Shown: positions 264-52,575, numbered from the stretch's first letter. The stretch is DNA of 53,576 bases from a virus (IMGVR_UViG_3300028048_001599), one strand, 5' to 3'. Made by a program: numbers and translations. The notes: generated from the letters alone by a model not told the origin.

Positions 264-1475
264 ATGATAGATTACACACCTAAATACTTAGTAATGGTAA
301 CAGCTGATAACCACAATAAGTATTATAAGATGACACCACAGGGTGATTCCTGGTTAGCCGAGTGGGGTAGAATAGGCGCAAAGGCACAGTCATCAGTTTA
401 TCCGAGGTCTAAATTTGAATCTAAGTACCGTGAAAAGGTAGCAAAGGGTTATGTAGACCAAACATCACTTGCTCAGGATTTGATACAGGTACAAATCAAG
501 CAAAACGATAATCAGAGGTATAAGGACATTGAGAATAGGGTCATCGCTGATATAGTAAATAGACTTCAGTTAATGGCAAAACAAGCTATTGATGCAAACT
601 ATACAATTCAGTCTAATGCTGTTACAAAGGCAATGATTGATGCGGCACAGTCGATTATTACTAACTTGATGCATATAGATGACCTGTATGCATTTAATCG
701 TGAACTTTTGAAATTGTTTAATACCATTCCACGAAAAATGAATAAGGTTTCTGACTTCATAGCAAATTCAAGGGAAGATTTCAAAGGTATTATAAAAAGA
801 GAGCAGGACTTGCTTGATGTAATGAGAGGTCAGGTTGTTCAGAATGTTGCTGTTGCTTCTCCGCAGGTGCAAACAGGTAATCAGACAATACTTGAAAAAC
901 TTGGTCTGGAGTTTGAACCTTGTACTCCTGATGATATTGCAACGATTAGGGCAACACTTGGTAATTGTAGAGCTAAACTCAAAAATGCTTGGAAGGTTAC
1001 CAATAAGAGGACACAGGCTCGATTTGATGCCTACTGTAAAGAAAATCGTGTCAGGGGTAAAAAGTTATTGTTCCACGGTTCAAGAAATGAGAACTGGTGG
1101 TCAATTATAAATACCGGATTAGTACTCAGACCTACAAATGCTGTAATCACTGGTAAAATGTTTGGATACGGTCTATATTTTGCACCATTGGCACAGAAGT
1201 CATTGGGATACACGTCACTTCAAGGTAGTTACTGGGCAGGTGGTCACTCATCAAGTGGTTTTATGGCACTTATGAATGTCGCTACTGGTACTGCTTATAA
1301 TGTTTATTCATTCGATAGTAAGTATTATAATTTTAATTATAATGCACTTCAAAAGGCACAGCAAGGTGCAAGTTGTTTACATGCACACGCTGGAAAAATG
1401 CTTCGTAACGATGAAATTGTAGTATACAAAGAGGAACAGTGTACTATCAAGTACCTAATAGAACTTACGAACTAA
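264..1475 (+). CDS. PARP-like ADP-ribosyltransferase (WGR + regulatory helical + catalytic domain)
   Basis: N-terminal NHNKYY...WGRIG (WGR); catalytic LLFHGS, GYGLYFA, NDEIVVY = H-Y-E triad; RBS AGGAGG. Confidence 0.9.
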   Translation: MIDYTPKYLVMVTADNHNKYYKMTPQGDSWLAEWGRIGAKAQSSVYPRSKFESKYREKVAKGYVDQTSLAQDLIQVQIKQNDNQRYKDIENRVIADIVNRLQLMAKQAIDANYTIQSNAVTKAMIDAAQSIITNLMHIDDLYAFNRELLKLFNTIPRKMNKVSDFIANSREDFKGIIKREQDLLDVMRGQVVQNVAVASPQVQTGNQTILEKLGLEFEPCTPDDIATIRATLGNCRAKLKNAWKVTNKRTQARFDAYCKENRVRGKKLLFHGSRNENWWSIINTGLVLRPTNAVITGKMFGYGLYFAPLAQKSLGYTSLQGSYWAGGHSSSGFMALMNVATGTAYNVYSFDSKYYNFNYNALQKAQQGASCLHAHAGKMLRNDEIVVYKEEQCTIKYLIELTN

Positions 1476-1509
1476 GATGGATACTTATAATAGTTAATGA
1501 GGTGATTAA

Positions 1510-2247
1510 GTGTTAAATGTAAACAATATTAAGGTAATGAATTTAGAGGGAGCACTCAGGGGTATGCGAAATCCGATGAATAGTTGGGATAAGAGCGACA
1601 GTCGTAAATGTCTTGACTACCCTGTTTCAGAATGCTACGCATGTAGTAAGCAGCACATGTGTATAGACGGTTACATTGTTGGTGCTGCTGACTTTGAGTT
1701 AGCAAGAAAACTATGCAAAGCTGGTTCTGACCATCGTAAATTTATGCGTCAAATTCTTGTAAGTATGGATATTACCGCTCCACTCTACTGGTGGAAGGAA
1801 TTTGACACATACAAGGTAGGTACTGTTGCTAACTCAACAAGTACAATGCATAAGATAACGTCAAAAGAGTTTGTACTTGAAGATTTTAGTTGTGACCACT
1901 TGGTATATGACTCAACAGTCGTTCTAAAAGGGGTAATTGACTCACTGAATAGGTGGCGTGACATCTACATAAATGGTGGACAGGCACAGGTCGATGAAAA
2001 TGACACAGCAGTTTATATCTTTGAACCTAAGGATGAAAATGTGTGGTGGCAATTAATTCAGTTGTTACCTTCTTCATACAATCAGACACGAACTGTATCA
2101 TTGAATTACGAGGTTTTATGTAATATCTACAATGCACGAAGATGTCATAAATTGACAGAATGGCGTAAACTATGTAAAACAATTGAGGATTTGCCATTGT
2201 CCGAACTAATAACTAATAAATTTGAATATATTGACGGGGGAGAATAA
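1510..2247 (+). CDS. thyX: ThyX/Thy1-like flavin-dependent thymidylate synthase homologue, degenerate motif
   Basis: GSDHRKFMRQI..DITAPLYWWKEFDTYKVGTVANSTSTMHK pattern of phage Thy1-like proteins; canonical RHR absent. Confidence 0.65.
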   Translation: MLNVNNIKVMNLEGALRGMRNPMNSWDKSDSRKCLDYPVSECYACSKQHMCIDGYIVGAADFELARKLCKAGSDHRKFMRQILVSMDITAPLYWWKEFDTYKVGTVANSTSTMHKITSKEFVLEDFSCDHLVYDSTVVLKGVIDSLNRWRDIYINGGQAQVDENDTAVYIFEPKDENVWWQLIQLLPSSYNQTRTVSLNYEVLCNIYNARRCHKLTEWRKLCKTIEDLPLSELITNKFEYIDGGE

Positions 2248-2248
2248 T

Positions 2249-4130: not shown

Positions 4131-4805
4131 TTAGAGTGTATCGAAGTATTCAGTAAAATCTTCATACATTCTGTAAAAGTCTTTTATACCAAAGTAGGTA
4201 TTGATTGCATAAAGTGTAGCACTATGTTCATGAGATGCAAGTACAATTGATGGAAATTCATCTTTGTTACATACTCCGATTTCGTTCATATACTCGTGTG
4301 TATTCTGTATTTCAATATTGTCACAAGACAGTGATGGAAACCAATGATTTATCAGTGATACATTGTGTACGTCACTTGTGTTGTAGTCAAGAATAGGGGT
4401 AGTACTTACGGTAGATGGGTTGCAATGATATCTGAAAGTTAGTGGTGAGGTAAATTCAGGTATTGACTTGAATATTTCAAGAATTGTCGTCGATTTAGCA
4501 CTCTGGTCACTTTTCCAATAATCTTTCGTACTGTCAGTCATCGGAAGTTCATCACAGTGTTCTTTTATATACTCACATACTTTAATGTAGAGGTTGATAA
4601 ATATAAGACTTTTTCCACTGTATACTTCCAACATTACGTTTCCATTGTCGTACACAAGTTCAAAGAATTGTTTATCATTTTCCAGTTTGGTGACGGTGTT
4701 TGTACTTACAATTGTCTTGACAATATCGAGGTTATTACACTCGGATTCATCAAATGTTTTAAGTACTTTGACTTCGGGTTTAAAGGTTTTGATAATGATT
4801 GACAT
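4131..4805 (-). CDS. Hypothetical protein (only substantial minus-strand gene)
   Basis: The track labels it +, but the translation matches the reverse complement (ends EYFDTL-TAA at 4131); minus-strand AAGGAGG RBS before ATG at 4805. Confidence 0.85.
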   Translation of the reverse strand: MSIIIKTFKPEVKVLKTFDESECNNLDIVKTIVSTNTVTKLENDKQFFELVYDNGNVMLEVYSGKSLIFINLYIKVCEYIKEHCDELPMTDSTKDYWKSDQSAKSTTILEIFKSIPEFTSPLTFRYHCNPSTVSTTPILDYNTSDVHNVSLINHWFPSLSCDNIEIQNTHEYMNEIGVCNKDEFPSIVLASHEHSATLYAINTYFGIKDFYRMYEDFTEYFDTL

Positions 4806-4837
4806 ATGGATTGCCTCCTTAAATTTAGTATATATTA

Positions 4838-4866
4838 AGTATATCAAAATACAGGGAATTTGTCAA
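4838..4866 (-). promoter_or_regulatory. SigA-type promoter for the minus-strand gene
   Basis: Minus strand TTGACA-17 bp-TATACT with extended -10 TG. Confidence 0.8.
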
Positions 4867-17959: not shown

Positions 17960-19353
17960 AAATATTAAAATCAATATAAATTTTATAATAAATTTTGTTT
18001 AAAATAAAGGATGATAACGCATGATTGTAACAAGGGTAGAAAAACATATCTTAAAACAGAATAATGAATATTACTCTTTGATAGATGATTTTTGTTTAAA
18101 GGCTAAAAATCTATATAACCATGCTAATTATATTATCAGACAAGAGTTTTGTTCATCAAATAAATGGATAAGATATTCAGATTTAGATTCTATTCTTAAA
18201 AAGGATAAAGATTATCCAGATTATGCAAATATGCCAACAGCGCAATCAGCACAGCAGATACTTCGTCTTTTAGATAAAAATTGGGTTTCATTTTTTAAAT
18301 CAATCAAAGATTGGTCTAAACATAAAGATAAATATTTAGGTAGACCAAAACTTCCTAAATACAAGTCTAAAAATGGTAGAGAAATACTAATATTGACAAA
18401 TCAAAATGTTAAACTTAAAGGTGACATACTTCATTTTCCAAAGACATTTAATAAATTTACTATAGAACCACAATTTATCAATAGAAGTGATTTTGTTTCG
18501 TTTCAGCAAGTGAGATTCTTACCGAGGAATAAACATATAGTAATAGAGATAGTTTATAATATTGAAGTTCCTGATTTAGTAAATGATAATGGTAGATATT
18601 TAAGTATTGATATAGGGGTAGATAACTTATCAACCATAACAAATAACTTTAATGAAGCACCAGTTATTGTAAATGGTAAAGGTCTAAAGTCTATGAATCA
18701 ATACTATAATAAATTATTAGCACATTATAAATCAATAACAAAAACGTTAAATAAACAAGACTATTCAAACAGACAAAACAAATTTACTATTAAGAGAAAT
18801 GCTAAAATAACTGATTACTTACATAAAACAAGTCGATTTATTGTAAATTATGCAAAACAACATTCAGTTTCAGTTATTGTTATAGGGTATAATAAAGAAT
18901 GGAAACAGAATAGTACTTTAAGTAAAAAGGTAAATCAACATTTTGTTCAGATTCCTTTCAATATTCTAATACAACAGATACAGTATAAAGCTGAAGAGTT
19001 TGGTATTAAAGTTATTTTAGTAGAAGAGAGTTACACATCAGGAACATCATTTTTAGATAATGAATTACCTGCAAAAGAAAATTACAACAAGAGTCGAAGA
19101 AAGCATAGGGGTATATTCAAATCTAATAATGGTACATTGATAAATGCTGATGTAAATGGTGCATTTCAAATTTTAAAGAAGGTATTTCCAAATGCGTATG
19201 CAAATGGGGTAGAGGTTGTAGTGTTTCAGCCAATCAAAGTAAACTGCGGTTGATTGATAAAGTTTTTATTAAAATTTTTTAACAGTTGTTAATAGTTTTT
19301 ATTAAAAACAAAACATTAAGATTTTGGTAATGGTTCAAGTGGTAATGATTCAA
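17960..19353 (+). mobile_element. Solo-tnpB (IS1341-like) element, ends uncertain
   Basis: tnpB with AT-rich palindromic flanks (TTAACAGTTGTTAA); candidate right end TTCAA at 19349-19353; left end not resolved. Confidence 0.4.
18021..19253 (+). CDS. tnpB: TnpB RNA-guided endonuclease (IS200/IS605-type, no adjacent tnpA)
   Basis: AKNLYNHANYIIRQ; RuvC SIDIGVDNL, VEESYTS, NADVNGA (D-E-D intact); no Cys zinc finger. Confidence 0.92.
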   Translation: MIVTRVEKHILKQNNEYYSLIDDFCLKAKNLYNHANYIIRQEFCSSNKWIRYSDLDSILKKDKDYPDYANMPTAQSAQQILRLLDKNWVSFFKSIKDWSKHKDKYLGRPKLPKYKSKNGREILILTNQNVKLKGDILHFPKTFNKFTIEPQFINRSDFVSFQQVRFLPRNKHIVIEIVYNIEVPDLVNDNGRYLSIDIGVDNLSTITNNFNEAPVIVNGKGLKSMNQYYNKLLAHYKSITKTLNKQDYSNRQNKFTIKRNAKITDYLHKTSRFIVNYAKQHSVSVIVIGYNKEWKQNSTLSKKVNQHFVQIPFNILIQQIQYKAEEFGIKVILVEESYTSGTSFLDNELPAKENYNKSRRKHRGIFKSNNGTLINADVNGAFQILKKVFPNAYANGVEVVVFQPIKVNCG

Positions 19354-29383: not shown

Positions 29384-29416
29384 TAACAATAACTAAATAG
29401 CACTGACATGAACAAG

Positions 29417-29446: not shown

Positions 29447-29496
29447 ATTACTTGTTCATTTACCATTTGATTATAGAATAGAAAGGTGGTGAAATT

Positions 29497-30924: not shown

Positions 30925-31411
30925 TCAAAACAAGTCAGATAGTAAACCTAAGCAAAAGAGCGAGGGTGAGGTAGATGATGTTTTAGTAGGTTCTGGGGAA
31001 GAATTTTTAAGTCTTGCGGTAAACTTAATTACCTCTATAATGCTTGCTAAATCTGAATATGCAAGATATACCTCAGAACTTTCTTACTATGACCAGTTAA
31101 TTGAGGATTACCTACATGTTCTCGAATTAGAGAATCAAAACTGGTCTGAGCGTGCAAAAGTAGCAACTCAGTTAGCTTATGCACGTAAGCAAAGACGAAT
31201 CGTGAAAAACGAATTTGAGTTACTGCAGCCTATAGTTTCATTTGCAAACTCAGATAGTGGTAAAAAGTTTCTTGAATCCTTAAGGTCACTGTCAGGAAAT
31301 GTTAGAAACGTAGATAAAAGGCATAAGCAGTCAACATATAAATGTCGTGTACTACATTTAGATGAGGACGGTAAAATAAATCTCAAACCGCCAAAGAGGG
31401 AGGACAAATGA
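30887..31411 (+). CDS. Hypothetical helical protein
   Basis: Overlaps preceding gene by 38 bp; heptad-like middle. Confidence 0.7.
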   Translation: MTLSKAKIQHKNNQNKSDSKPKQKSEGEVDDVLVGSGEEFLSLAVNLITSIMLAKSEYARYTSELSYYDQLIEDYLHVLELENQNWSERAKVATQLAYARKQRRIVKNEFELLQPIVSFANSDSGKKFLESLRSLSGNVRNVDKRHKQSTYKCRVLHLDEDGKINLKPPKREDK

Positions 31412-31698
31412 ATAATAAGTTAGACGACTATGATATAGCATTTGAGCCGTATGAAAAAATGGGCTTTAAACCGTTAAACAGTAACAAGTTAAGGGGTTTG
31501 CTATTCGGGATTATAGGCTCTATTATGATTGCTTATATGTCAATCTTACTGAACATGGTAGTCTTAACAACACTACTATTAAGATGTGCCACAGTTTTAT
31601 TATTTTTAGGTATTCTTAGTTTATGTGCTGCAATCATATTCGGGGTACTTGGTGTTATTGAAGACAACCTAAAAAAGGACAAAAAGATTAGTAAGTGA
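31408..31698 (+). CDS. Small membrane protein (2 TM)
   Basis: Two hydrophobic stretches. Confidence 0.7.
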   Translation: MNNKLDDYDIAFEPYEKMGFKPLNSNKLRGLLFGIIGSIMIAYMSILLNMVVLTTLLLRCATVLLFLGILSLCAAIIFGVLGVIEDNLKKDKKISK

Positions 31699-31708
31699 GG
31701 TGATAAAA

Positions 31709-32938
31709 ATGATACAGTCAATTTATATTGAAAATTTTATGTCAATATCATCAGCTAATATACAGTTTGATGACAGCAATATCATATCATTGTGTGGCTA
31801 CAACGATAGTGGTAAATCTGCTGTTATAAGACTGATTGACATAATGTTTTACAATGCATACTCTACTGAACAGGTTCACTACATCAAGGATGGTGCTGAC
31901 TTCTTCAAGTGTATTATATCATTCAAGGATGGGGTAGAATACGAGCGTATTAAATATGCTACAGGTTCATCTGTTTTTGTACTGAGAAAAGACGGAAAAA
32001 CATTATTTGATAATCGTAAAGGTAATCAAATCATAAACACAGACGGTGTTCCAAAAGTAATCATGGATTATTTGGGGGTAATACGCGACGAATTTACTAA
32101 GGAGGAGTTGAACGTCCGGCGTTGTACTGATAGATTGTTCCTGATTGAAACAACGGGTGGTGACAACTATAAAATCCTTAACACAATTCTTCAGTCTGAT
32201 AGACTCGCTGAAACGTCAAATAGTCTGAATACAGATAAAAACAAACTACAGCAGGAGATTGTGGTAAGTTATAACAGATTATCAGCACTCAGGGACGAGC
32301 GTGACAGGGTTGTTGTAAGTTCAGGTGATTCAATAGATACATTTGAAAAAGACGTCACAACTCTTGAAGCTATAAACGAACGTTTCAAACTATTGAATAA
32401 AATAAATGACTATAACACATTAATCACAACGGTAAAGATACCTGATGAATTATCAATGATAGACGTTTTCAGGTATATGGAAATAGACAGAATAAAGGGG
32501 TACTCAGAAAAAGCCAAAATTGCGATATCACCTGAGGCTCCTACGATATCTGATGTTTTAATTGATAAATACTCTAAATTGAGTGAAATGACCGAAACAA
32601 GAAAACGGACGGATGTAGTAATACAGTCTGAAGTCGATGTTGTAGATATCGACAGGTATAATTCCATTGCAGACCTTATTTCAAAGCAGAGTACCACCAA
32701 GGTAGATATCCCAAAGGGGGTATCTGAAATTGATATCGACAGACTTAATAAAATAAGCAATCTATCAATCATAGCTTCACATTTCAATTCTTGTAATAAT
32801 ACATATGAAACCATAGTTACCGAGTGTGACAAAGCAACATCGGAGTTAAAGAGATTTGCGGACACGAATAATTTGACTATATGTTCAAATTGTGGTGCTG
32901 TTGTATCAAAGGATATAGGAGGACATGTTCATGTATAA
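31709..32938 (+). CDS. sbcC: SbcC/Rad50-like ATPase, N-terminal half
   Basis: IYIENFMS, Walker A GYNDSGKS, coiled coil, terminal CSNC hook. Confidence 0.82.
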   Translation: MIQSIYIENFMSISSANIQFDDSNIISLCGYNDSGKSAVIRLIDIMFYNAYSTEQVHYIKDGADFFKCIISFKDGVEYERIKYATGSSVFVLRKDGKTLFDNRKGNQIINTDGVPKVIMDYLGVIRDEFTKEELNVRRCTDRLFLIETTGGDNYKILNTILQSDRLAETSNSLNTDKNKLQQEIVVSYNRLSALRDERDRVVVSSGDSIDTFEKDVTTLEAINERFKLLNKINDYNTLITTVKIPDELSMIDVFRYMEIDRIKGYSEKAKIAISPEAPTISDVLIDKYSKLSEMTETRKRTDVVIQSEVDVVDIDRYNSIADLISKQSTTKVDIPKGVSEIDIDRLNKISNLSIIASHFNSCNNTYETIVTECDKATSELKRFADTNNLTICSNCGAVVSKDIGGHVHV

Positions 32939-33902
32939 AGCACTAATTATAGGTGACTTACATATTTCAGATGCATATGTGGGTTATCATAAGGACTACT
33001 GGGCTGAGTGTACAGAAATTCTTGGTAAAATCACTTCAATCATAGTCGATAAGGGGGTAACACATCTCATATTAACGGGTGACCTTGTTGGTTTGCGTGA
33101 GAAAAATTTCAAACAGCGTGCAAGCCTGATGTTGTTTATGATGGCACTCAAAAAATGGAATGAACTTACCGATTATAATGTTTACTCTCTTGTAGGTAAT
33201 CATGATATGAGCGGTCGAACAACTGATTTCGAGTTATTTGAGAGTCTTGGTCTTATAAAAACTACTCGAACACTTGGTAAAAGTTTCTTAGATATCAATG
33301 ATACACGTTTTCACATGATTAATTTCGGTGATGAGAATAACAAAATTGAATTGAAAACAGGAACAGATGCTACCAATATAGGAATAACTCATGCAGACAT
33401 TCAGGTTACAGGCAAAACAACATGGTGGTACCCTTCAAATGTAAGATTTGAATTAGCAACAATGGAACATTGGAAGGGTATCGAAATGATTATCGCAGGA
33501 CACATTCATAATCCGTCACCTAAAATGGTAACAACTGATATTGACGGTTCAAATGTAAACCTGTTTTATGTTGGGTGTCCAACAAGACCTCGTAAGAATG
33601 ATAATTGGGAAAAATGTTGGGGTACATTGTTTGAGATTGATGGTACAAACGTAAATTGTTCTATTCTTGAAATTCCGTTACCTGTTGATGTGTTCGTAGA
33701 AACAACGGAGGATATCGACACGGAGGAGCTTGAAACTGATGAGGTAACAAAGATTGAGGAACTTGCAGCAATTTTGAATACATTGTCTGAGTATAAACTT
33801 GACTCAGATGATGATATCGAGGGTCAGATAAAAAGGTTCTCAGGGGTAGACACAAAAGCTATGAACTTAGCTTTGGAATATTATAACCGTGCTAAATCTT
33901 AA
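32931..33902 (+). CDS. sbcD: SbcD/Mre11-like nuclease
   Basis: GDLH, GDL, GNHD, THA, GHIH metallophosphoesterase motifs. Confidence 0.88.
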   Translation: MYKALIIGDLHISDAYVGYHKDYWAECTEILGKITSIIVDKGVTHLILTGDLVGLREKNFKQRASLMLFMMALKKWNELTDYNVYSLVGNHDMSGRTTDFELFESLGLIKTTRTLGKSFLDINDTRFHMINFGDENNKIELKTGTDATNIGITHADIQVTGKTTWWYPSNVRFELATMEHWKGIEMIIAGHIHNPSPKMVTTDIDGSNVNLFYVGCPTRPRKNDNWEKCWGTLFEIDGTNVNCSILEIPLPVDVFVETTEDIDTEELETDEVTKIEELAAILNTLSEYKLDSDDDIEGQIKRFSGVDTKAMNLALEYYNRAKS

Positions 33903-33976
33903 ATACTTGCTTTAGCACCATAAGATTATATAATGTCAGCAAAAATGTTGAAAATATAAAAAGAGGGAGTAATCTA

Positions 33977-34687
33977 ATGGATATTATTTCAGAAGTAAAA
34001 GCACTTAATTCAAAGGCTGCGGAACTTAACGAAGCTCGTAAAAAGGCATTGTGGGAGAAGAACAGGGCTGAGGAAGAACTCAAGACTGCACTTGTTGAAT
34101 ACAACAAGAAGTATGGTACATCACTCACAGCTGATGACATCAGTTCAGAGTTTTCAAAGGTCGAGGCTGAAATCAAGGCACAGGCAGAGAAGGTTAAGGC
34201 TGAGATTGAAGCCATTGAAAACGGCGAAGAAATCGTAGACACTGGTGTTGAAAACGATGACACAGTAGGTACTCACAAAAACTCAGGGGTTTCTGAAAAC
34301 TCAGTAGCTTCTGGAAACACAGTAGCTTCTGGAAACACAGTAGCTTCTGGAAACACAGTAGCTTCTGGAAACACAGTAGCTTCTGAAAACACAGTAGCTT
34401 CTGGAAACACAGTAGCTTCTGAAAACACAGCGGCTTCGACAGGTACTTCATCAAAGGTTCGCAAGGTTGACGCAGCATATATTGCCGATGGTTCGTTTTT
34501 GTTTGATAACACAGAGGACTTCGCAAAGCAGATAGTAGGAGGGGTAGCAACCGAAGAAAAGTCAATTGACGAGATTCTTGCATCTGCTACTAAGGAGGAA
34601 CCTATTAAGGTAGAGGAAAAATCGAAGGAAGAGCCTAAGAAACCCATAACGACCATCGGTGGTTTTGATTTTTCAAAATATATTTAA
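33977..34687 (+). CDS. Coiled-coil protein with VASGNT repeats and acidic tail
   Basis: Helical N-terminus; 7x hexapeptide; ends FDFSKYI. Confidence 0.75.
   Translation: MDIISEVKALNSKAAELNEARKKALWEKNRAEEELKTALVEYNKKYGTSLTADDISSEFSKVEAEIKAQAEKVKAEIEAIENGEEIVDTGVENDDTVGTHKNSGVSENSVASGNTVASGNTVASGNTVASGNTVASENTVASGNTVASENTAASTGTSSKVRKVDAAYIADGSFLFDNTEDFAKQIVGGVATEEKSIDEILASATKEEPIKVEEKSKEEPKKPITTIGGFDFSKYI
34304..34429 (+). repeat. 18-bp coding tandem repeat x7
   Basis: GTAGCTTCTG(G/A)AAACACA. Confidence 0.95.
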
Positions 34688-34700
34688 GGGGTAGATAACA

Positions 34701-35903
34701 ATGAAGATAACAATGCCAATAGCAAATCTTAATAAAGCACTTGACTCATTCAAGGTAATCCTTAATGACGCACTGCTCGCTGATGACAAGCGTAATATTA
34801 TACTTTGGAAGAAGGAGGACGGTGTTAAACTTGTAGCAAAAAATGATATCATTGACTGTATCTGCGATATAGAAGCCACATCTGTAGTAGATGGTTCTGT
34901 AAATGAAATGCAGTCAATCAAGTATAAGGAATTACAGGGGGTACTTGATGGCTTTAAGTCACTGAGAGTGACTCAGGCTACTAACATTTCATTTGAGTTT
35001 CTTGAAAACTTCATAGCTGTTGAAGTTGAGGAGGAGCCAATTGATAAGGACAGTGATTATGCTGAAAAACTTTTCAGAACGAATAAGTATCAGCTTTCGA
35101 GGTCGAAACCTGTATCTGATGTTCAGCGTAATGAAATTCTTGCTGTATCTCTTTCAGATGAGGGTACTGTTGTAAATAAGGATGATATCATTCCTTATTT
35201 TGCATCGCTTCTTCCGACAGTAAAGGATATGCGAGAGGGTGTACCTACAAGATTTAATGTAGTAGGTGATTATATCTATACAACACCGATGTCTTTTGCG
35301 GCACTGATGTATAATACAGTACCTGAGTTTAAAGACTTTATTCTTACAAGTTCAGCTGCTAACTTTATGAAATCATTCTTTGAGCTTGAAGATAAAACAA
35401 ACATCAACATTGAAGCTATTAATGAAAATGCTAAGATTGTACGTCTGAGTAATTCAATGGCGATGGCTGTTGTAAAGACAATATCTACAAAGAAGGCTTT
35501 CAACGTAGCAAACTATATCGAATTACCCTCAACAGGGGTAGCCGTAGACAAGGGGTATTTTTGTGATGTTATCAAGCGTTTCACAAATAATGCTGAGGCT
35601 ATCAAGATTACTATAAAACCTGAGGAAATAACTCTTAAACAGTCAAGGGTCACAATGTCAGTTCCGGTATACACTGCAAGACTTGATGATAACTTCACTG
35701 AAATGACTTTCTCAGTTAATGCAAATGTTCTTTCAAACCTTGTATTCGCTCATGCAAACTTCAGTAATCTGCTGTTCATCTACTTTAAGAAGGTAGGTAA
35801 CAAGTGGGCAGTATCATTCACAGACGATAGTTTTGTAAATGATGCAGACGGTAACAAGAAACATGTATGGTGGACAGGTGCTAATTTCAAGGACAACAGA
35901 TAA
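34701..35903 (+). CDS. DnaN-like (beta) sliding clamp
   Basis: 400 aa; N-terminus MKITMPIANLNKAL..NIILWKKEDGVKLVAKND follows the beta-clamp pattern; replication context. Confidence 0.7.
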   Translation: MKITMPIANLNKALDSFKVILNDALLADDKRNIILWKKEDGVKLVAKNDIIDCICDIEATSVVDGSVNEMQSIKYKELQGVLDGFKSLRVTQATNISFEFLENFIAVEVEEEPIDKDSDYAEKLFRTNKYQLSRSKPVSDVQRNEILAVSLSDEGTVVNKDDIIPYFASLLPTVKDMREGVPTRFNVVGDYIYTTPMSFAALMYNTVPEFKDFILTSSAANFMKSFFELEDKTNINIEAINENAKIVRLSNSMAMAVVKTISTKKAFNVANYIELPSTGVAVDKGYFCDVIKRFTNNAEAIKITIKPEEITLKQSRVTMSVPVYTARLDDNFTEMTFSVNANVLSNLVFAHANFSNLLFIYFKKVGNKWAVSFTDDSFVNDADGNKKHVWWTGANFKDNR

Positions 35904-35923
35904 AAGTAAAATGGGGTAGAAAG

Positions 35924-36469
35924 ATGCTAAACACGATAGTAAAGTTGCACAATATAGAAGTGGGGGTATCGGACTTCAAGGTTAAAGTCATGGCGAAACA
36001 CTGTATAAGTGCTATACTGTTTGAGAGTAAATCAGTAATGTCTGATGAAATCTACAAGGCTGTAACTTCTGATGATATAATTCCTTATGATGGTACAATG
36101 TCATTATCTGAATTATCTCATTTATCCACTGAATACTTTATAGACGATGGTAACTATCGTTTAATAGTTGCATTGTACTATCGTATGGCTATCTTAACCT
36201 ATGAATATGTTTCAATTCTGCGTTCAATAAAAATACTCTATAATTCAGAAATGTCATTACCTATAAGGTTTGGCAAGCTTGAAAAGATAGAACAAAGAAT
36301 ACATGATTTAAGGCTTAAAGTTTCAAATGTAGAGGCTAATATAGACTTAGTAAAAGACATAGGTATTATATCATTCTACAGTGAATTTGAAGCTATAAAA
36401 AAGTTTGCTAATACGAAGTCATTCAAAGACATTGACTTTGTTGCAATAGATAATCAAGTGGTTTTATAA
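35924..36469 (+). CDS. Hypothetical protein
   Basis: 181-aa ORF in operon. Confidence 0.7.
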   Translation: MLNTIVKLHNIEVGVSDFKVKVMAKHCISAILFESKSVMSDEIYKAVTSDDIIPYDGTMSLSELSHLSTEYFIDDGNYRLIVALYYRMAILTYEYVSILRSIKILYNSEMSLPIRFGKLEKIEQRIHDLRLKVSNVEANIDLVKDIGIISFYSEFEAIKKFANTKSFKDIDFVAIDNQVVL

Positions 36470-36504
36470 GTGGTGTAGGTTATATAAGGGATAACCTCAG
36501 AAGA

Positions 36505-36527
36505 GGGGTAATGGGGTGCATTACCCC
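36505..36527. terminator. Hairpin (terminator or processing site)
   Basis: GGGGTAATG-GGGTG-CATTACCCC. Confidence 0.55.
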
Positions 36528-36546
36528 CTATTATTTATAGGTAGGA

Positions 36547-37272
36547 GTGAAATCAATGAACTATGATAGTTTAATTCTTAACTCAAAATTGAGACTAAGT
36601 GCTGAGCGTGAGAAAATAAGAATGGTCGATGACCTTACAGAGCGTATTATAGCACTTGAACAGTCTAATAAAGAACTCGATGAAAAGTTTGGTGTGTACT
36701 GTAGGGCAAGTTCTATTTTGGGTTCGGTAGCTGACAAGAATACTGAAACAAAGATAAACGCAATAACAGGGGTAATCAACAAAGCACTTGCACTTCTTTT
36801 CCCTGACGGTTCAAGAAAAATTGAATTAAAGCAAACAATGTACCGTAACATATACCCTCATTTTAATGTAACACTTACAGTAGAGGATGGTAAGACGAGA
36901 ACATTCAAACAGTCGGGTACAGGTTTGGCTCAGGTAGTATCATTTCTTTTTACAGCTTGTCTTATAGACGCAAGGGGTGGACGCAAGGTAATGGTAATGG
37001 ATGAGTTACTTAATGGTTTACATCCTGACGCAAAGGGTGTTGTTAAAGACCTAATGTTAGCACTGTCAGATAAGTTTCAATTCATCATCGTAGAATACGG
37101 TCTAAACATCGGTAAGCAGTATGAAGTAAAGAAAACAGGGGGTACTTCAACTGTTCTTCCTATTGATTATAAATATTATGATACGTCAAACGAACAAAAT
37201 GTAGGTGAACAGGCGTCAAATGAACAGGTGTTAAATGAACAGGTGTCAAATGAACAGGTGGTGACAGTGTGA
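36547..37272 (+). CDS. SbcC/Rad50-like ATPase, C-terminal half
   Basis: Coiled coil then signature-like QSGTG, Walker B VMVMDE, D-loop-like NGLHPD; NEQV repeats at tail. Confidence 0.8.
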   Translation: MKSMNYDSLILNSKLRLSAEREKIRMVDDLTERIIALEQSNKELDEKFGVYCRASSILGSVADKNTETKINAITGVINKALALLFPDGSRKIELKQTMYRNIYPHFNVTLTVEDGKTRTFKQSGTGLAQVVSFLFTACLIDARGGRKVMVMDELLNGLHPDAKGVVKDLMLALSDKFQFIIVEYGLNIGKQYEVKKTGGTSTVLPIDYKYYDTSNEQNVGEQASNEQVLNEQVSNEQVVTV

Positions 37273-43816: not shown

Positions 43817-46800
43817 ATGGCTCAAGAAGGCATGGTTTCAATAGTTCACGGTATTTTAGACTATGTTGTAGCACAACAGTCACGTGATGGTTCTACTGTA
43901 TATTCGGAGTTTGAAACTGAATTGAATACATTTATATACCCACAAGCTTCAAATATTCATTTATCATTTTTACAAGATTATAAACTTGCTTGTAATATCA
44001 TAGCTTTTGGTATATTGCGAATAGCACGTATGAATAAGAAGGAAAAATCAGATAGATTTAAGTCTGTACTTGATGTTCCTGCAGATGTCGAGCCTATTCT
44101 TAAAAAGATAATAGGTCTTGACTCGTTTACGCTTGATTATTGTTCAGCATTATTAGGTATAAAATTTAATATTGTTGACTTTGATGGTTCTTGTAAGCAA
44201 CAAGAGGTTGTATATGATAAACTTGCTGATATGTTTGGTACAATAGGTATGTTATTCAACTTTACACCTGAAAATGTATCGAAGGTATCGGTGCATAAAA
44301 CTGAGGTTGATTCTCTATTTGACCGTTTAAAACTTATAGTTGAACGAAATGAGTTATCTGCGCCATACGGTGTAATGTATTATAGGGATAATCAGGGGTA
44401 TTTTCTTAAACCAACAACATCTGAAAACTCTGAATTTTATCCGTTTAAATTAAATTATTTTGTAGATTATAAACGGGGTATAATCCCATCTACCGTGGTA
44501 GAAGAAAATAATATTTCTCAGTTATTTACAGATTATTTAACTACCTCAGAACCCGGAGAATTTATTTTCTACGATAGTAACTCAAGTTCAACTGTTAATT
44601 TACCTGATAACAACGGTAAAGTTAAGTTTTACCCTATATTTATAGCATCATTAATTTTCAGGCAGAAGATGCATTGTAAGCAAGTAGGTACATCTGGGGA
44701 TAAATCAGGTGCAATGTGGTATTTAGACCCAGAACGTATGAAGAAAGATGACTACATTGAGTGGTTGTCAAACTTCTTCTATAATCGTATGATGCCGGCT
44801 GTAATAGGGAGTATACCTGTTGAAAACTATTCATCTATATGGTTATCTGTTACAAAGTCGCTCACATCTTATGTATATCTTGAGGATTACAAAGGGGTAG
44901 CAAAAGTATCACTTATATTTAGTTTTGGTGAAAAGAGTAAGGATATAAGTATACGTTGTAAAGCTATATCTGACCAGATATTAGATATTAGTAACGGAGC
45001 CTTTGGTTCTTCACTGTTTCCAGGTAAAACATTGGAAAAGATTGATAGTAGGTTTTTAAGTCAATCGTCACAGGATTATTCGGGGTACATTATAGCCTTT
45101 ACTGCAGACAAAACTGCATATTATGCACTTACATCATTTGCATATAAGACCTATGCTCAAATGATGGAAAACAATAAGGAAATTTCACTTAAGAGTTTGT
45201 TTGTTGGTAAAACAAAAGATGACCAATTATTGAGTGTGGATTTATCGGGTAACACGACTCATTCAATGTATATCACCGCAGGTTCTCGTTCAGGTAAAGG
45301 TGTTTTAACCTTAAACTTATTAGCAGGTTTGATATATAGTGGCTGTCCACTTATATACCTTGATAATAAACCAGACATGGCAAGTATGCTATGGCAGATG
45401 GAACGTGAACTAAACAATGGAGTGGTTGATATAAATTCTGATGGTACAGCTAACCCAAATTATAAACGTATATTATCTATCGAATCACTTCGACCTACGA
45501 AAAAATTCCCAAAAGATGATAATAACGTTCTTGGTTTTAACTCTACTCGTGTTAAATTAGCATATCAACATGCACAAGCAAATTGTCCATCAGAATTTAA
45601 GACTTTATCTATTGGTGCAAAAGCGTTTATTTCATATGCTAAAGCTGTACAATTAGCTTTTGTTGTAGCACAGTCACCATCAACATTTGGTGTAAGTCAA
45701 GATTCTAAATTAGTTACAATAATGGACGAGTTAAATAATGCTACTGAAAGTTTGGATGCTTGGGTTGATACTTTTGGTTTATCTAAAGCATATAAGGATT
45801 TAAGGTACACACTTCCTGAAAAGTTAAAAGGTACTCCTGAAGGTAAATTTTTTGAGTTATTAAATGACCTCACATCAAGTTGGAATTTAGGTAGAAATGC
45901 ATGGTTTACTGATACAGGTGGTGCTTTATTCATAGAAATAGCACAAAAGTTAAGTGCAGGGGGTAACACCTCAGGTGGTGGTAAGACTGTAACTAAATCT
46001 TTTATGGCAAACATGATACAATGGGCACCTTATAAAATTTTTGGTAAGAACGGTAATATGAAAACTGGTGTTGATAAGGCTGATATGACCGCATTTACTA
46101 CCAATAATGAAGAGGGCAAACTTTTAGCATATAATGAGGTACAGGGTGCAGGTGGTTCTACGGATAAAGCAACTGGCGAGGAACTTACAGCATTAGATGG
46201 TTGTAGTCGTAGGTTTATATTTACGTCTGACAGTGGGTATAGAGTGTTCGCTCCTTTGTTCACACTGAATAGAAACGATTTACTTTTAGCAACTGAGAGT
46301 ATAGCGGAACAAACAATCAGTGGTAACCCTCCTGTAATAGATGATGCACTTATTCATAAAATAGCAACAAACCAGCGTTGGGCTAAGTCAAACGTTGGAC
46401 CTTTCCTTGATATTCAAGAGGGTAATCACAATGACCCAGAAACCGTTATAAAAGCGGAGATTGTTGAAAAACAGCAAGATGGCACATATACGTTAAATGA
46501 AAAAATTGGTTTTATGGGTCTGTTACGTATGCTACTAAATTATGACGATGCTAAAATTCTCAGTACATTGTCACGTGGTTACGATATTTGTTGGGAAATA
46601 TTAACTGCATCAGGAATTGCTCAGGAACATGGGTATACATTCGTTGAAGAATATCTATACGACCTTAGACCTGATACTATATACTCAAGCTCGGAAATTG
46701 TAGAACGCATGCAGAGTGGTTTACAGGCAGGTTCAGGTGCGTCAAGTTTTAACACAGGTGACTTCAATAATTCGGGGTATGACGAATATGCAAATCCGAC

Positions 46801-47935
46801 CCAAAATTCAGATATGTCAGAACCTGATTATGAAGATAATTCAGATGTCGAACCCATTCGTGGTACTTCGGAAACAACTTCAGCTCCATTACCAAACCCA
46901 TTTCAAACATCAGGTAATACATGGGGTACTCAGCAAAATTCAGACGAAACACTCGACCCTGAAGGTGACTGGGATAATAGTGAGTTTGATGACGGTTCAG
47001 AGGATAATTATGGAGGTCAAGAAACTACAGAGCAACCCATCAGTGGTTTCGGAGCACCCACAGGAACTCCGATGGGAACACCGATGGGAACACCGTTTGG
47101 AACTCCGATGGGTTCACCACAACCTGTCCCGCCGGCACCTGATTATTCAGGTATACCAACATATGATAAACCATTTGTACCTCTAGACCTTGAACTCGAC
47201 TTTGGAAAAGGGGTATATGGTGGTTATAATTCAGTTCGTCACTACAGTGAGGTATTAGTTGAATGTATTCGTGAAGCTATGGGTGACCTAAATAGAGTAA
47301 TTAAATTTGAGGTTCAGCAAGGTGGTCATATAGTTGTAAATGGGGTACATATAGCACCATCAATTCAACAAAGTCAGCTTGAAGCTTTACCTTTAGATAT
47401 ACGTGCTCGTGTATCACAGGGGATGTGGATAGATATATTTCATTTTGCGGACTTGTATAAATTTAAAAATCTGGCTTACCTTAGTGTAGATGACATTGAC
47501 TTAGCATATACGAAGTTGAGAACAGAGATTGGCAAACCTACATTCTTAAAGGTAAAAAATAAACTTGCAAGAAAGACGAGTCTTGAAATATTGATTATAG
47601 CCGGTCAGGTTATAGATGAAACACCTGAAAGTACTGAGCAACAAACAATTAACGAAAATTCACATAATTTCTCGTCAGCATGTAAAAATGGCTTTAGTAA
47701 AATAGCATCCGCAGGTTCTGCATTAGGACATGCTTGTGGTCGTATATACTCAAGTAAAGTTTGGCAATCACCTGTTGGTAGATTTGCAAAAGGTGCAGCA
47801 ACTGTAGCTGGTGTTGGTGTTGGTTTATCATTAATGGGTGGTATTCTCGGACTGTTGGGTGTGTGGGGTACTCTTAATTTGGCACTAGTCGGTGGTGGGG
47901 GTATCTACAACGCTATAAGAAAACGTAAAAAGTAA
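43817..47935 (+). CDS. VirD4/FtsK/HerA-superfamily ATPase with C-terminal membrane anchor
   Basis: Walker A TAGSRSGKG, strand-2 YLDNKPD, Walker B TIMDE, Arg finger GR, sensor Q (EIAQ); acidic/Pro linker; hydrophobic C-terminal hairpin then RKRKK. Confidence 0.72.
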   Translation: MAQEGMVSIVHGILDYVVAQQSRDGSTVYSEFETELNTFIYPQASNIHLSFLQDYKLACNIIAFGILRIARMNKKEKSDRFKSVLDVPADVEPILKKIIGLDSFTLDYCSALLGIKFNIVDFDGSCKQQEVVYDKLADMFGTIGMLFNFTPENVSKVSVHKTEVDSLFDRLKLIVERNELSAPYGVMYYRDNQGYFLKPTTSENSEFYPFKLNYFVDYKRGIIPSTVVEENNISQLFTDYLTTSEPGEFIFYDSNSSSTVNLPDNNGKVKFYPIFIASLIFRQKMHCKQVGTSGDKSGAMWYLDPERMKKDDYIEWLSNFFYNRMMPAVIGSIPVENYSSIWLSVTKSLTSYVYLEDYKGVAKVSLIFSFGEKSKDISIRCKAISDQILDISNGAFGSSLFPGKTLEKIDSRFLSQSSQDYSGYIIAFTADKTAYYALTSFAYKTYAQMMENNKEISLKSLFVGKTKDDQLLSVDLSGNTTHSMYITAGSRSGKGVLTLNLLAGLIYSGCPLIYLDNKPDMASMLWQMERELNNGVVDINSDGTANPNYKRILSIESLRPTKKFPKDDNNVLGFNSTRVKLAYQHAQANCPSEFKTLSIGAKAFISYAKAVQLAFVVAQSPSTFGVSQDSKLVTIMDELNNATESLDAWVDTFGLSKAYKDLRYTLPEKLKGTPEGKFFELLNDLTSSWNLGRNAWFTDTGGALFIEIAQKLSAGGNTSGGGKTVTKSFMANMIQWAPYKIFGKNGNMKTGVDKADMTAFTTNNEEGKLLAYNEVQGAGGSTDKATGEELTALDGCSRRFIFTSDSGYRVFAPLFTLNRNDLLLATESIAEQTISGNPPVIDDALIHKIATNQRWAKSNVGPFLDIQEGNHNDPETVIKAEIVEKQQDGTYTLNEKIGFMGLLRMLLNYDDAKILSTLSRGYDICWEILTASGIAQEHGYTFVEEYLYDLRPDTIYSSSEIVERMQSGLQAGSGASSFNTGDFNNSGYDEYANPTQNSDMSEPDYEDNSDVEPIRGTSETTSAPLPNPFQTSGNTWGTQQNSDETLDPEGDWDNSEFDDGSEDNYGGQETTEQPISGFGAPTGTPMGTPMGTPFGTPMGSPQPVPPAPDYSGIPTYDKPFVPLDLELDFGKGVYGGYNSVRHYSEVLVECIREAMGDLNRVIKFEVQQGGHIVVNGVHIAPSIQQSQLEALPLDIRARVSQGMWIDIFHFADLYKFKNLAYLSVDDIDLAYTKLRTEIGKPTFLKVKNKLARKTSLEILIIAGQVIDETPESTEQQTINENSHNFSSACKNGFSKIASAGSALGHACGRIYSSKVWQSPVGRFAKGAATVAGVGVGLSLMGGILGLLGVWGTLNLALVGGGGIYNAIRKRKK
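47063..47110 (+). repeat. 12-bp coding tandem repeat x4 (GTPM/GTPF)
   Basis: GGAAC(T/A)CCG(ATG/TTT). Confidence 0.85.
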
Positions 47936-50764: not shown

Positions 50765-51406
50765 ATGTTATTTATACTCAAATGTATTGTAACAGCGGAG
50801 CAAAAGAGTACCGCTGATAATATGGTTGATAACTGGGTGAGTGCCTACCTATTATCTGAATTGCGTAGCAGGATTTCAAAAGGGTTCAAAATCAGTGAAG
50901 ATGACAAAACCATATTGAAGCAAATATTCAACTATGAGTTGGACGACCACCTGTTCTTTATCGCAAAAGGTGATTTAGGGGTAGAGGAACATGAGTTTAT
51001 TGTTGACAACCTTGAAAGTTGTATCAATACACGAGATGTTGTTAAATATAACGAATATACTCAGTTACCTATAATTGAAGAACTTCCACAGTTGCCTGAC
51101 ATTGTAAAATGTTTTAATACATTAACTGTGTTATACCATGAGGCTGAAAATCTTGGTGAGCATGTTGATGCTTTTAAGGAGTGGTATTCTGTTCATCATA
51201 TCGACATGTGTAATTATTTAAGTAATGGTTCATTTTGGGTTCGTGTTTTAGAAAATTTTGTGAATAACCACAGTAGTGGTGATTTTGATACTGGTTTTGC
51301 AAAGCATTTAATATCTGGTTTTAATTCTTATATTACAAGAGTTAAAGTAATATACAATTCTGAAGGTGTTTACGATAAGTATACGCATTGTGTAAATGTA
51401 GATTAA
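50765..51406 (+). CDS. Hypothetical protein
   Basis: AAAGGTGG RBS before ATG 50765. Confidence 0.7.
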   Translation: MLFILKCIVTAEQKSTADNMVDNWVSAYLLSELRSRISKGFKISEDDKTILKQIFNYELDDHLFFIAKGDLGVEEHEFIVDNLESCINTRDVVKYNEYTQLPIIEELPQLPDIVKCFNTLTVLYHEAENLGEHVDAFKEWYSVHHIDMCNYLSNGSFWVRVLENFVNNHSSGDFDTGFAKHLISGFNSYITRVKVIYNSEGVYDKYTHCVNVD

Positions 51407-51733
51407 GAGTAGACTTGAATTTTAATCAATTTATTTTTGGTACATAATAAAATATTTGTGAGGTTGTGGTGTAAATAAGCAAGGTTTAGAGTATTAAGGT
51501 CGAAAAAAGCATTAAAATCGGGGTACATTAGGAAAATGGTATTTTCAACAAGTCAGAAAAGTATTGCACAATTATAGATTATGCTATTGTAACATTTTTG
51601 ATACATTTTATCTCATAAATAATACATGAAAAATTGAAAATTTTGGTTGTGACCTTCGGAGTAAAATCTGGGGGTCTTTTTTTTTGTTACGTTTTAGATG
51701 GTTGTGTGTAGTCATTGATAAACAGTTGAGAGG

Positions 51734-52040
51734 TAATACGGAGTCGTTGTTTTTGGAAAATTAGTAATGGGGGTAGTACGAAGCTGGTGTTTTTGGTAAA
51801 TTGAATTAATGATATAATACGGAGTTTAGTTTTGGTAAATTATAGGTAGATTATATTATACGTGTATTATTTTTGGTAAACAATTGCTAAGTGAATTATT
51901 TCAGGTCTGATTTTTAGTAACTTATAGTTATATACAGCTTATGTGTTCAGTAGATTCAGCTTTTGGTAAATTAACAAGTGTTCATATTTTGGTAATATAT
52001 AAAAGTAATAGACACTGGATATATAATTTTTGGTAAACTT
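51734..52040 (+). repeat. Degenerate ~40-bp periodic array (TA(A/G)TACG ... TTTTGG(T/A)AAA)
   Basis: TTTTGG core at 51751, 51791, 51830, 51871, (51912), 51961, 51987, 52028. Confidence 0.8.
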
Positions 52041-52575
52041 AATCAAGTGTGAAAACATTATATTAAAAACTACGACAGTGATAAGAAAAACCATAGAAAA
52101 ATAGATAATTTATGGGGTTACATATTTAAAATTTAGCAAAGATCAAGTTTATATTTACATTATTGACCTGTATAATTGTTCTATTCATAAATTGTGAAAA
52201 TTGGGGTATTTCTGCTAAATACTTACAAAATTCAGGTACAATTTTTTGGTAAATAAGTACATGAGTGATTTTTGGTGGTCTGTAACAAATGGGGTAATTT
52301 TGACCTGTCATTTTTAATGACATTTTGGAAAAGGTTTAGTATGATTTCTAATAAAAAAGACTCATTTTCTAAATAGTTATTGATTGAATCCATAAAATAG
52401 TAGTTAGTTTCCAATAAAAAGGTGTATATGACCAAATAATAGGTGTTATGTTCTAAAAAGAGGTTTTATTTGACTAAATATAAAGACTATATTTCTAAAT
52501 GAAAAGACTTATTATCTAAAAAATTATTATATTAGACCAAAAAAGAAGTATAATAAACTAAAAAGATATAGATAA

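Follow-up and report, generated by a model that had tools for sequence, protein, structure and literature searches.

Results

The locus

The viral record IMGVR_UViG_3300028048_001599, whose whole stretch of 53,576 nucleotides we call the window, belongs to a mobile element on which nearly all open reading frames (ORFs) lie on one strand, here the plus strand, and on which the hexamer GGGGTA recurs along that same strand. The window has a G+C content of 35% and a GC skew of about +0.17 throughout. It encodes a putative DnaG-type primase beside a RecD2/Dda-like helicase, SbcC and SbcD, and a 1372-amino-acid (aa) ATPase without a match in Pfam or PHROG (Table 1), together with a PARP-like protein, a dCTP deaminase, one C5 and four N6/N4 DNA methyltransferases, two HNH nucleases and two TnpB-type genes. 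An earlier reading of the sequence alone (the sequence-only reading) had also named a 'ThyX-like' gene, a label that was not confirmed by any Pfam match among the ORFs scanned. A 323,685-base ENA contig matches the window at 100% identity over its first 53.6 kb (reversed), as do contigs from a Logan run and a JGI sample; the 9.7 kb upstream of the window carry 24 further copies of GGGGTA on the plus strand and none on the other. Across 17 studies the element was found in gut metagenomes of bovine, sheep and goat origin; close relatives at the DNA or protein level are absent from the phage collection and from IMG/VR, and the raw-read runs X21 and X22 contained zero reads of it.

Table 1. Positions and properties of features in the window, and GGGGTA counts (plus/reverse) in the related loci
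Sequence	Feature	Position	Strand	Remarks
Window	GGGGTA array, 124 exact words	364..52296	+	mean spacing 422 bases, largest gap 1432
Window	sole sizeable minus-strand gene	4131..4847	-	one GGGGTA on + strand (4396), zero on own sense strand
Window	IS605-type tnpB with 3 GGGGTA	18021..19253	+	27% GC
Window	RecD2/Dda-like superfamily 1B (SF1B) helicase	23696..26929	+	600-aa N-terminal extension; adjoins primase
Window	putative DnaG-type primase, 269 aa, RNA-polymerase/Toprim core only	27396..28205	+	Pfam Toprim_2; PHROG DNA primase; model predicted local distance difference test (pLDDT) 93; fold matches
Window	pXO16-collinear core	28283..37272	+	366-aa protein; SbcC 31700-32938; SbcD 32925-33902; 400-aa protein; AAA_21-like ATPase 36547-37272
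Window	reverse GGGGTA	36522..36527	-	pairs with + copy at 36505 in an intergenic hairpin, between ORF ending 36469 and ORF starting 36547
Window	1372-aa ATPase, candidate translocase	43817..47935	+	conserved in G001, G002, pXO16
Window	non-coding region, 25% GC	51407..53576	.	terminator 51651-51676; TTTTGGWAA repeats 51751-52332; inverted repeats 52576-52651; terminal tandem repeats
Window	two reverse GGGGTA, 52747 and 52962	52747..52967	-	AT-rich non-coding end; 52747 apparently conserved in L094 (reverse copy at 18916)
Several	conserved large non-coding region 5' of two small genes and a UvrD-type helicase	window 51407-53576; L094:17560-20465; L096:15217-17847; pXO16 219298-220986		candidate origin (see text)
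L050	GGGGTA 46/0			primase identity 83%; 14.9 kb
L051	GGGGTA 89/0			primase identity 74%; 20.7 kb
L052	GGGGTA 80/1			primase identity 60%
L053	GGGGTA 75/1			primase identity 48%
L091	GGGGTA 55/0
L092	GGGGTA 62/0
L093	GGGGTA 40/0
L094	GGGGTA 66/2
L096	GGGGTA 108/0
L010	GGGGTA 25/0
L011	GGGGTA 21/0
L016	GGGGTA 49/2			GC 43-45%

GGGGTA is enriched on one strand

An exact search of both strands of the window for GGGGTA and its complement TACCCC found 124 copies on the plus strand, the first at 364 and the last at 52291, against five on the minus strand (36522, 41857, 50458, 52747 and 52962). This agrees with the sequence-only reading, which had counted about 120 against 5 by eye, had listed the same five minus-strand positions and had placed the copy at 36522 in a hairpin, where it does pair with a plus copy. 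The rough zero-order expectation of about 10 given there is likewise reproduced (9.5), and dinucleotide shuffles yield 15.6±4.1 copies for both strands summed and never more than 26. No other hexamer is as frequent in the window, and the 18 one-mismatch neighbours of GGGGTA average 9.7 copies (maximum 29). Most runs of G end in TA, as had been claimed: TA follows 124 of about 164 runs of at least four G, or some three quarters. The ten bases on either side of the word contain zero sequence information.

Protein coding does not account for the word. When synonymous codons were shuffled within each of the 58 genes called on the plus strand (500 shuffles), 23.9±4.0 copies were obtained, at most 36 in any shuffle, whereas 110 are observed, a 4.6-fold excess; TACCCC, in contrast, occurs twice in the same genes against 2.3±1.5 after shuffling. 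Since the complement stands at the shuffled level while GGGGTA is far above it, the asymmetry is an enrichment of one strand and not an avoidance on the opposite strand. The test is conservative, because the codon usage that it preserves is already inflated by the word itself. Of 98 Gly-Val pairs in the window genes, 59 use GGG-GTA, whereas GGG accounts for just 17% of the Gly codons, and the dipeptide is itself in excess over the 58.7 expected. The sites occupy all three codon phases (59/34/17), with 11 intergenic, at densities of 2.0 per kb in intergenic and 2.35 per kb in coding DNA, and their position along the genes is uniform (Kolmogorov-Smirnov p 0.73 in the window; range 0.73-0.91). 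They are also more evenly spaced than chance would have it: the coefficient of variation (CV) of the spacing is 0.64 as compared to 0.99±0.09 for random placement, for which the median largest gap is 2169 bases, and in every element it lies between 0.61 and 0.83 (P<0.001).

A hexamer confined to one strand has a precedent in the EcoP15I site CAGCAG of phage T7, an asymmetric word present in one orientation only (0/36) in a genome that has all of its genes on a single strand. The T7 bias is taken as avoidance of one orientation. With GGGGTA, different from this case, the rarer orientation is as frequent as expected, while the common one is in four- to fivefold excess, in the window as in the plasmid pXO16 described below; avoidance of a Type III restriction site is therefore ruled out, TACCCC not being depleted in either (2 versus 2.3 and 3 versus 4.0, respectively). 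We conclude that GGGGTA is a selected, polar, DNA-level signal, a conclusion already drawn from the sequence by eye and one on which the codon-preserving null, conservation in relatives and the asymmetry across complete relatives all agree.

The word in relatives and around closed circles

Relatives were found from the Toprim protein, that is the putative primase, which has 56 homologs, and their loci (L numbers) were fetched from assemblies, JGI metagenomes and IMG/VR. The polar word is carried by 16 further relatives, and eleven of the fetched loci together contain 695 plus-strand and 6 reverse copies in 219 kb. The synonymous-shuffle test gave 44 observed versus 10 for L016 and 69 versus 17 for L053. 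Two large records, G001 (IMGVR_UViG_3300045988_154631; 179,785 bases) and G002 (128,669 bases), carry GGGGTA 246/6 and 281/4 times and GGGTA 526/54 and 505/35 times, respectively. The ends of G001 overlap by 55 bases, which identifies it as a circular assembly, and all of its 188 called genes lie on one strand; what is recorded as its 'direct terminal repeat' is this 55-base assembly overlap. In no 10-kb bin of G001 or G002 does the word, the gene orientation or the GC skew flip.

The edges of the word drift between lineages. Within the window and its close relatives the TA end does not vary, while in G001 and G002 the core is relaxed to [not C]GGGTA (DGGGTA), often followed by T, with GGGTA the better spaced form in G001; in L093 the final A is optional, present after 40 of 79 GGGGT, which gives the form (A)GGGGT. 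In the primase tree every lineage of the clade with short primases devoid of a zinc domain bears the word, with the exception of one subclade, and the word is absent from outgroups with long primases. Neighbour-contrast and codon-shuffle scans of the word-poor loci L006, L007, L012 and L017 revealed no alternative sharp word.

This distribution bears on which protein might read the word. One could imagine that a strand-specific nickase or a DNA-modifying enzyme acts on GGGGTA, in the manner of the one-strand nicks of phage T5 or of a hemi-methylated asymmetric site, as the word is asymmetric and ends in A and genes for five DNA methyltransferases and two HNH nucleases lie in the window. But such a target need be neither enriched nor evenly spaced, contigs assemble straight across the sites, and methyltransferases are present in word-poor relatives while tblastn detects none in the word-bearing G001 and G002. 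We therefore give this explanation hardly any credence. The RecD-like helicase shows the same pattern of presence and absence, the G001 protein at the helicase position matching the helicase's PHROG family no more than marginally, and is likewise disfavoured as a reader.

Several other observations were made in these loci. L050 contains, over its whole 14.9-kb length, about 23 copies of GCAGACACTGA on a single strand, which are probably a repeat, tandem or dispersed, within a gene. A family-A DNA polymerase with intein and LAGLIDADG matches in some members is found at L092:1-296 and L002:1-3138. In L034, a locus of G001, a tRNA-like sequence in AT-rich non-coding DNA (11400-11490) adjoins three to four TTTGGTGGCATT-like repeats and one reverse GGGGTA. 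L053:18722-20801 encodes a pilin-like LPXTG protein (SpaA, GramPos_pilinD1) followed by a sortase, in keeping with pXO16-type surface or aggregation functions.

Sites are retained and gained

At aligned orthologous positions the sites of the window are kept far more often than hexamers in general: in 49% of cases as compared to 15% of all hexamers identical in L050, 56% versus 10% in L051, 41% versus 8% in L052 and 22% versus 2.3% in L016, a retention three to nine times that of other hexamers. About half of the sites are lineage-specific, and density is therefore maintained with turnover. Gain can be followed in the tnpB gene of Table 1. An 88.8%-identical copy located elsewhere in the word-poor L017 has no GGGGTA, and neither have nine bacterial tnpB homologs (10.9 kb in all). 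Compared with the sister copy, the three sites of the window copy differ by GGT to GGG (synonymous), AGA to AGG (synonymous) and GGA-ATA to GGG-GTA (Ile to Val). The window copy is a recent acquisition, and all three differences are synonymous or conservative single changes. Taken together, the alignments indicate that GGGGTA sites are under both purifying and positive selection.

Candidate host genomes are poor in the word

The tnpB gene has its nearest relatives (61-64% identity) among rumen Clostridia, Oribacterium included, which is the sole basis of the host assignment. Five Oribacterium/Lachnospiraceae genomes contain 436-524 GGGGTA per 3.6-3.8 Mb, or about one per 16 kb per strand, and a Bacillus genome contains 760 per 4.4 Mb; in both groups the word is about half as frequent as the reversed-word control. 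A signal of the host itself should be enriched in the host, and a host Chi or FtsK-orienting polar sequence (KOPS) is therefore unlikely.

A related proposal, raised in the sequence-only reading for the element's SbcCD/RecD2, is that GGGGTA acts like Chi, switching off a helicase-nuclease, be it host AddAB/RecBCD or an enzyme of the element that works with SbcCD and the RecD-like helicase; marked DNA would be spared or recombined and unmarked host DNA degraded. Like the Chi sites of RecBCD and AddAB, GGGGTA is a short, polar, over-represented word of the kind that acts on a tracking enzyme; its density on the element strand is some 30-40 times that in the candidate hosts, so that it could mark 'self', and the window has genes for SbcC, SbcD and a RecD-like helicase. 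Known Chi words, however, are over-represented in their hosts and flip at origin and terminus, whereas GGGGTA is not enriched in Oribacterium, other Lachnospiraceae or Bacillus, never flips and is at least ten times denser. Moreover, Chi differs between genera while one and the same word serves Bacillus and rumen elements, the RecD-like helicase is present in word-poor relatives but undetected by tblastn in G001 and G002, and no RecB/AddA-type nuclease was found in the window. A Chi-like role is on these grounds improbable.

Kinship with the conjugative plasmid pXO16

In a search of PLSDB (72,556 plasmids) the only matches to the Toprim protein (37% identity, E 5e-24) and to the 1372-aa ATPase were ten Bacillus thuringiensis records of about 349.6 kb, which are pXO16 (pBTHD789-1, NC_018516) and copies of it. 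Homologs of 8 of 51 window proteins are present in pXO16, all collinear and on one strand; the shared core consists of an HD protein, the Toprim primase, a 366-aa protein, SbcC, SbcD, a 400-aa protein, an AAA ATPase and an ATPase of about 1400 aa. The circular pXO16 sequence NZ_CP045024.1 (349,211 bases) carries GGGGTA 658 times on the forward and 5 times on the reverse strand, with 31-45 copies in each 20-kb bin and a spacing CV of 0.71. GC skew is positive throughout, and no polarity flip of word, genes or GC skew was found in the plasmid. Its coding DNA contains 481 copies versus 110.5±8.9 after synonymous shuffling (TACCCC 3 versus 4.0), and the density is 3.24 per kb outside ORFs of at least 80 aa as compared to 1.63 per kb in coding DNA. 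In a 49-kb stretch all 85 of 85 annotated genes lie on the strand of the word, which shows the minus-strand ORF calls in the checked stretch to be spurious.

pXO16 is a conjugative plasmid, and the only one of these elements for which transfer has been demonstrated by experiment (PMC9673590, PMC6199540). Very few of its 434 genes have relevant database homologies, and none resembles known components of type IV secretion systems (PMC9673590). Its transfer locus, with two ATPases and a wall hydrolase, reportedly lies within the replication region (PMC9673590, PMC6199540); no relaxase or origin of transfer (oriT) has been identified, and transfer is completed in about 4 minutes (PMC9673590). The plasmid is reported to transfer single-stranded DNA (ssDNA), and the rolling-circle plasmids that it mobilises require an intact and correctly oriented single-strand origin (PMC6199540). 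In pTX14-1 and pTX14-2, two such small rolling-circle plasmids, GGGGTA is not enriched.

A search of G001, G002 and pXO16 for the Pfam families Terminase_6N, Phage_capsid (HK97) and Phage_portal gave no match, which is weak negative evidence. We accordingly call the element of the window pXO16-like rather than a phage. G001 and G002, complete-virus or provirus records of IMG/VR, are collinear kin of a conjugative plasmid. Another peculiarity of pXO16 is a 4.4-kb stretch after the Toprim gene (162395-166831), which has no listed gene and no ORF of at least 80 aa and carries 8 plus-strand GGGGTA. It has no counterpart beside the primase in relatives and could be a pseudogene, an intron or an RNA.

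The non-coding region at the end of the window

The last 2.2 kb of the window (51407-53576) are non-coding. About ten TTTTGGWAA repeats some 40 bases apart enclose four plus-strand GGGGTA; the AT-rich stretch that follows has no plus site, and contains three inverted copies at 52576-52651. Tandem repeats of about 35-65 bases occupy 53380-53576, and in them the contigs from ENA, Logan and the DNA run all stop. The stop seems to be one of assembly rather than a true terminus, since the relative L094, whose ATPase homolog (1363 aa) is 89% identical, aligns through to window position 53563. The end region of L094 is 84.6% identical to that of the window and has kept the repeats, one reverse site and a 1.6-kb gap in plus sites. 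Beyond this gap plus-strand genes (226 aa, 401 aa and a UvrD helicase) and plus sites resume, and the apparent flip at the window's end is therefore local; a genome-scale polarity flip at 52.5 kb is ruled out, as both L094 and L096 continue with plus genes and plus sites. This order, DnaJ protein, non-coding gap, two genes, helicase, is found again in L096 and pXO16. In the window and L094 the conserved non-coding region combines TTTTGGWAA repeats, an AT-rich core and inverted copies and also coincides with a gap in plus GGGGTA; the region is a candidate origin of replication or transfer. No clear counterpart was found in G001. That the reverse copies near the AT-rich region are leading-strand start sites would fit the window and L094, but was rejected because L096 and pXO16 have none there.

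The region is also informative as to whether the word acts in DNA or in RNA. A transcription-linked or RNA-level signal (pausing, antitermination, RNase protection or R-loop formation) might be considered as the word is always on the sense strand where essentially all genes point one way, and as five window sites located 3-15 bases 5' of start codons could double as ribosome-binding sites. Yet the plus strand is kept even inside the sole sizeable minus-strand gene, and there is no positional bias within genes. Past the strong terminator at 51651-51676 three more plus GGGGTA follow in ORF-free DNA, and the density is full or higher in non-coding DNA of the window (51.7-52.3 kb), of pXO16 and of L096, whose equivalent 2.6-kb region has 14 plus sites and no reverse one. 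Metatranscriptome contigs cover the genes at 43.4-51.5 kb, up to 51,547, and nothing at 51.65-53.6 kb, whereas the DNA run covers the latter fully (this comparison is at the contig level and from one library). An RNA-level function is thus very improbable.

Discussion

What reads the word? The same word occurs in elements of Bacillus and of rumen Clostridia while its edges drift between lineages, which suggests a reader encoded by the element. Every word-bearing element found encodes a DnaG catalytic core, although this correlation is not independent since the Toprim protein served as the search handle. The structural model of the window's primase superposes over its full length on the RNA-polymerase domain of Bacillus subtilis, Staphylococcus aureus and Escherichia coli DnaG (template modelling score 0.65-0.68) and also matches the primase parts of T7 gp4 and T4 gp61. 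Its 56 homologs form a family of about 265-aa DnaG-type primases that consist of the catalytic core alone, without zinc-binding or helicase-binding domain, the pXO16 member being WP_000389279.1. Between the helicase and primase genes of the window lies a 466-base gap without a credible ORF (26930-27395); part of it is GC-richer, and it may harbour an RNA or a regulatory site.

Sites of DnaG-type primases are trinucleotides with a middle pyrimidine and a cryptic 3' base, namely GTC in T7, GTT in T4, GCA in SP6, CTG in E. coli and CTA/TTA in S. aureus and Geobacillus (PMC2532735). GGGGTA ends in GTA and hence fits this rule. The T7 gp4 sites 5'-(G/T)(G/T)GTC-3', which yield the primers pppACCC, pppACCA and pppACAC, resemble it in the G-rich run, the GT and the cryptic 3' base, and gp4 is likewise a Toprim/DnaG-type primase encoded by a mobile element that acts at lagging-template sites to make short C-rich primers, priming at GGGGTA being putative. 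The word parallels the extended T7 site GGGTC. Different from T7, however, it has six fixed bases and a cryptic A and would be read by a primase without zinc domain, and T7 sites lie on both strands (187/215). In T7 (L056, NC_001604; 48% GC) the degenerate primase pentamer is frequent on both strands; it is found 166 times in plus-strand coding DNA versus 119±9 after shuffling (z about 5) and 189 versus 172±9 times on the other strand, where it is hardly enriched. With the CTA/TTA sites of Firmicutes DnaG the word shares the xTA end, the middle T and the cryptic A, and the best fold matches of the primase are the DnaG cores of B. subtilis and S. aureus, but its first base is G, four G's are needed, and no strand bias has been reported for the host trinucleotides (PMC2532735).

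We therefore suggest, with some but less than even confidence, that GGGGTA provides start sites for the element's own putative DnaG-type primase on the strand that is single-stranded during copying. The word strand would be the lagging-strand template of replication that proceeds one way, co-directionally with the genes, or the ssDNA exported to the recipient, or both. Of the word, the trinucleotide 5'-GTA-3' would be read, its A being cryptic; the primase would place the first nucleotide opposite the T and then copy the G run into the GC-rich primer pppACCCC. Selection has filled the strand to one site per 0.2-0.7 kb and evened out the spacing; that it is visible would be explained by chance giving only about one site per 2 kb of coding strand, with long gaps, in a genome of 33-38% GC. 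Uniform polarity around the circle requires that repeated priming is ever needed on one strand alone, which one-way replication or the transfer of a fixed single strand would provide. The kinship with pXO16, which the sequence-only reading had missed, adds ssDNA transfer as a ground for this uniformity. Primase as reader, fork direction and identity of the transferred strand are what we infer here.

Indirect hints on the lagging-strand side come from the purine skew and from tnpB. Three independent IS605-type tnpB insertions are all oriented sense-on-plus, and in IS200/IS605 elements it is the lagging-strand template that receives the active strand (PMC5027513). If the sense strand of tnpB is the active strand, as the way in which the TnpB guide RNA is made would imply, it would follow that plus is the lagging-strand template.

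Several points weigh against priming. Known DnaG-type primases owe their template specificity to a zinc-binding domain. Neither the 269-aa primase nor the neighbouring helicase or the upstream small ORFs contain a zinc-binding domain or a Cys/His cluster, and a zinc ribbon supplied in trans beside the primase was looked for and not found. Known primases read three bases, or five in the extended T7 site, and not six, and the sites of T7 itself are not strand-polar (187/215), their plus-strand enrichment being only 1.4-fold. One subclade possesses an orthologous primase but is weak in the word (L015) or nearly lacks it (L012, L006, L007). The orientation of tnpB could instead reflect selection against antisense insertions. 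Finally, word and gene orientation are confounded, and what separates them is one minus-strand gene, the non-coding stretches and one RNA library. The primase-site proposal of the sequence-only reading nevertheless remains the best fit as regards the form of the word, the encoded DnaG-type core and the dense, even sites, whereas the missing zinc-binding domain does not sit well with it.

But why would an element maintain hundreds of start sites on one strand only? Strand-specific signals that convert an incoming or displaced single strand to duplex are known from the single-strand origins (sso) of rolling-circle plasmids and from plasmid primases (Sog, TraC), which act on the transferred strand in recipients. 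Because the plasmids mobilised by pXO16 need a correctly oriented sso, priming on the incoming strand is limiting in pXO16 transfer. GGGGTA might accordingly be pictured as a 'distributed single-strand origin' on the exported strand, through which the zinc-less primase would duplex the incoming strand independently of the host and on the element's own DNA only, an extension that is possible but rather doubtful. Hundreds of kilobases of incoming strand would in this manner become duplex within minutes, the primase possibly having a specificity partner or being exported along with the DNA, and vegetative replication would be constrained by this code to a single direction. An sso differs from this picture in being a single folded locus, 150-300 bases long, on which the RNA polymerase of the host acts, as opposed to a six-base word present about 660 times over the element.

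The ATPase of 1372-1440 aa offers a different reader, one that the sequence-only reading had considered under the name of a KOPS-like signal. This protein is FtsK/VirD4-like and is conserved in the window, G001, G002 and pXO16 at the same place relative to the primase-SbcCD core; GGGGTA would guide or load it and so set the direction of the pump in transfer. The pXO16 transfer locus with its two ATPases within the replication region, and without a relaxase or oriT found (PMC9673590, PMC6199540), is consistent with this proposal, and the uniform polarity of the circle would suit a pump that always runs one way. KOPS of FtsK, SpoIIIE recognition sequences (SRS) and the TraB recognition sequences (TRS/clt) of Streptomyces are indeed polar words that orient or load a DNA pump. 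They are, however, sparse 8-mers that converge on the terminus or cluster at one locus; guide words such as KOPS and SRS occur about once per 4-12 kb, that is 10-50 times more sparsely than GGGGTA, and loading needs no even spacing of 0.2-0.7 kb. No convergence is seen in G001 or pXO16, nor across the non-coding region of L094 and L096. Moreover, pXO16 reportedly moves ssDNA (PMC6199540) while readers of the FtsK type bind duplex DNA. We regard a guide word for the translocase as unlikely, and keep to priming as the reading to be preferred.

Conclusions

The sequence-only reading knew of no described element using this word, and as far as the searchable literature goes this still holds: searches of it for the word, for strand-biased phage motifs, for hexanucleotide primase sites and for a pXO16 primase gave nothing relevant, the two main pXO16 genome papers being outside its scope. 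To our knowledge, a one-strand GGGGTA code across a pXO16-like family is undescribed, polar genomic words as such being known. We know of no other polar word that outnumbers every other hexamer of its genome, exceeds a strand ratio of 100:1, runs around a circle without a flip and is spread from the rumen to Bacillus.

The finding links a large group of uncultivated 'huge phage' contigs from the ruminant gut to pXO16 and is a warning that conjugative megaplasmids may be among the contigs called viral. pXO16 has been studied for 35 years, and its oriT, relaxase and most of its genes are unexplained; as it is tractable in the laboratory, a signal recognised in metagenomes becomes directly testable. 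Whatever its mechanism, GGGGTA is a simple diagnostic of this family of elements. If it is a priming site, the family would possess a primase with hexamer specificity and no zinc domain, the one-direction architecture of its genomes would be explained, and it would be shown how very long transferred single strands become double. And if the word is a distributed origin, it would represent a new solution to complementary-strand synthesis in conjugation and the first handle on the transfer mechanism of pXO16.

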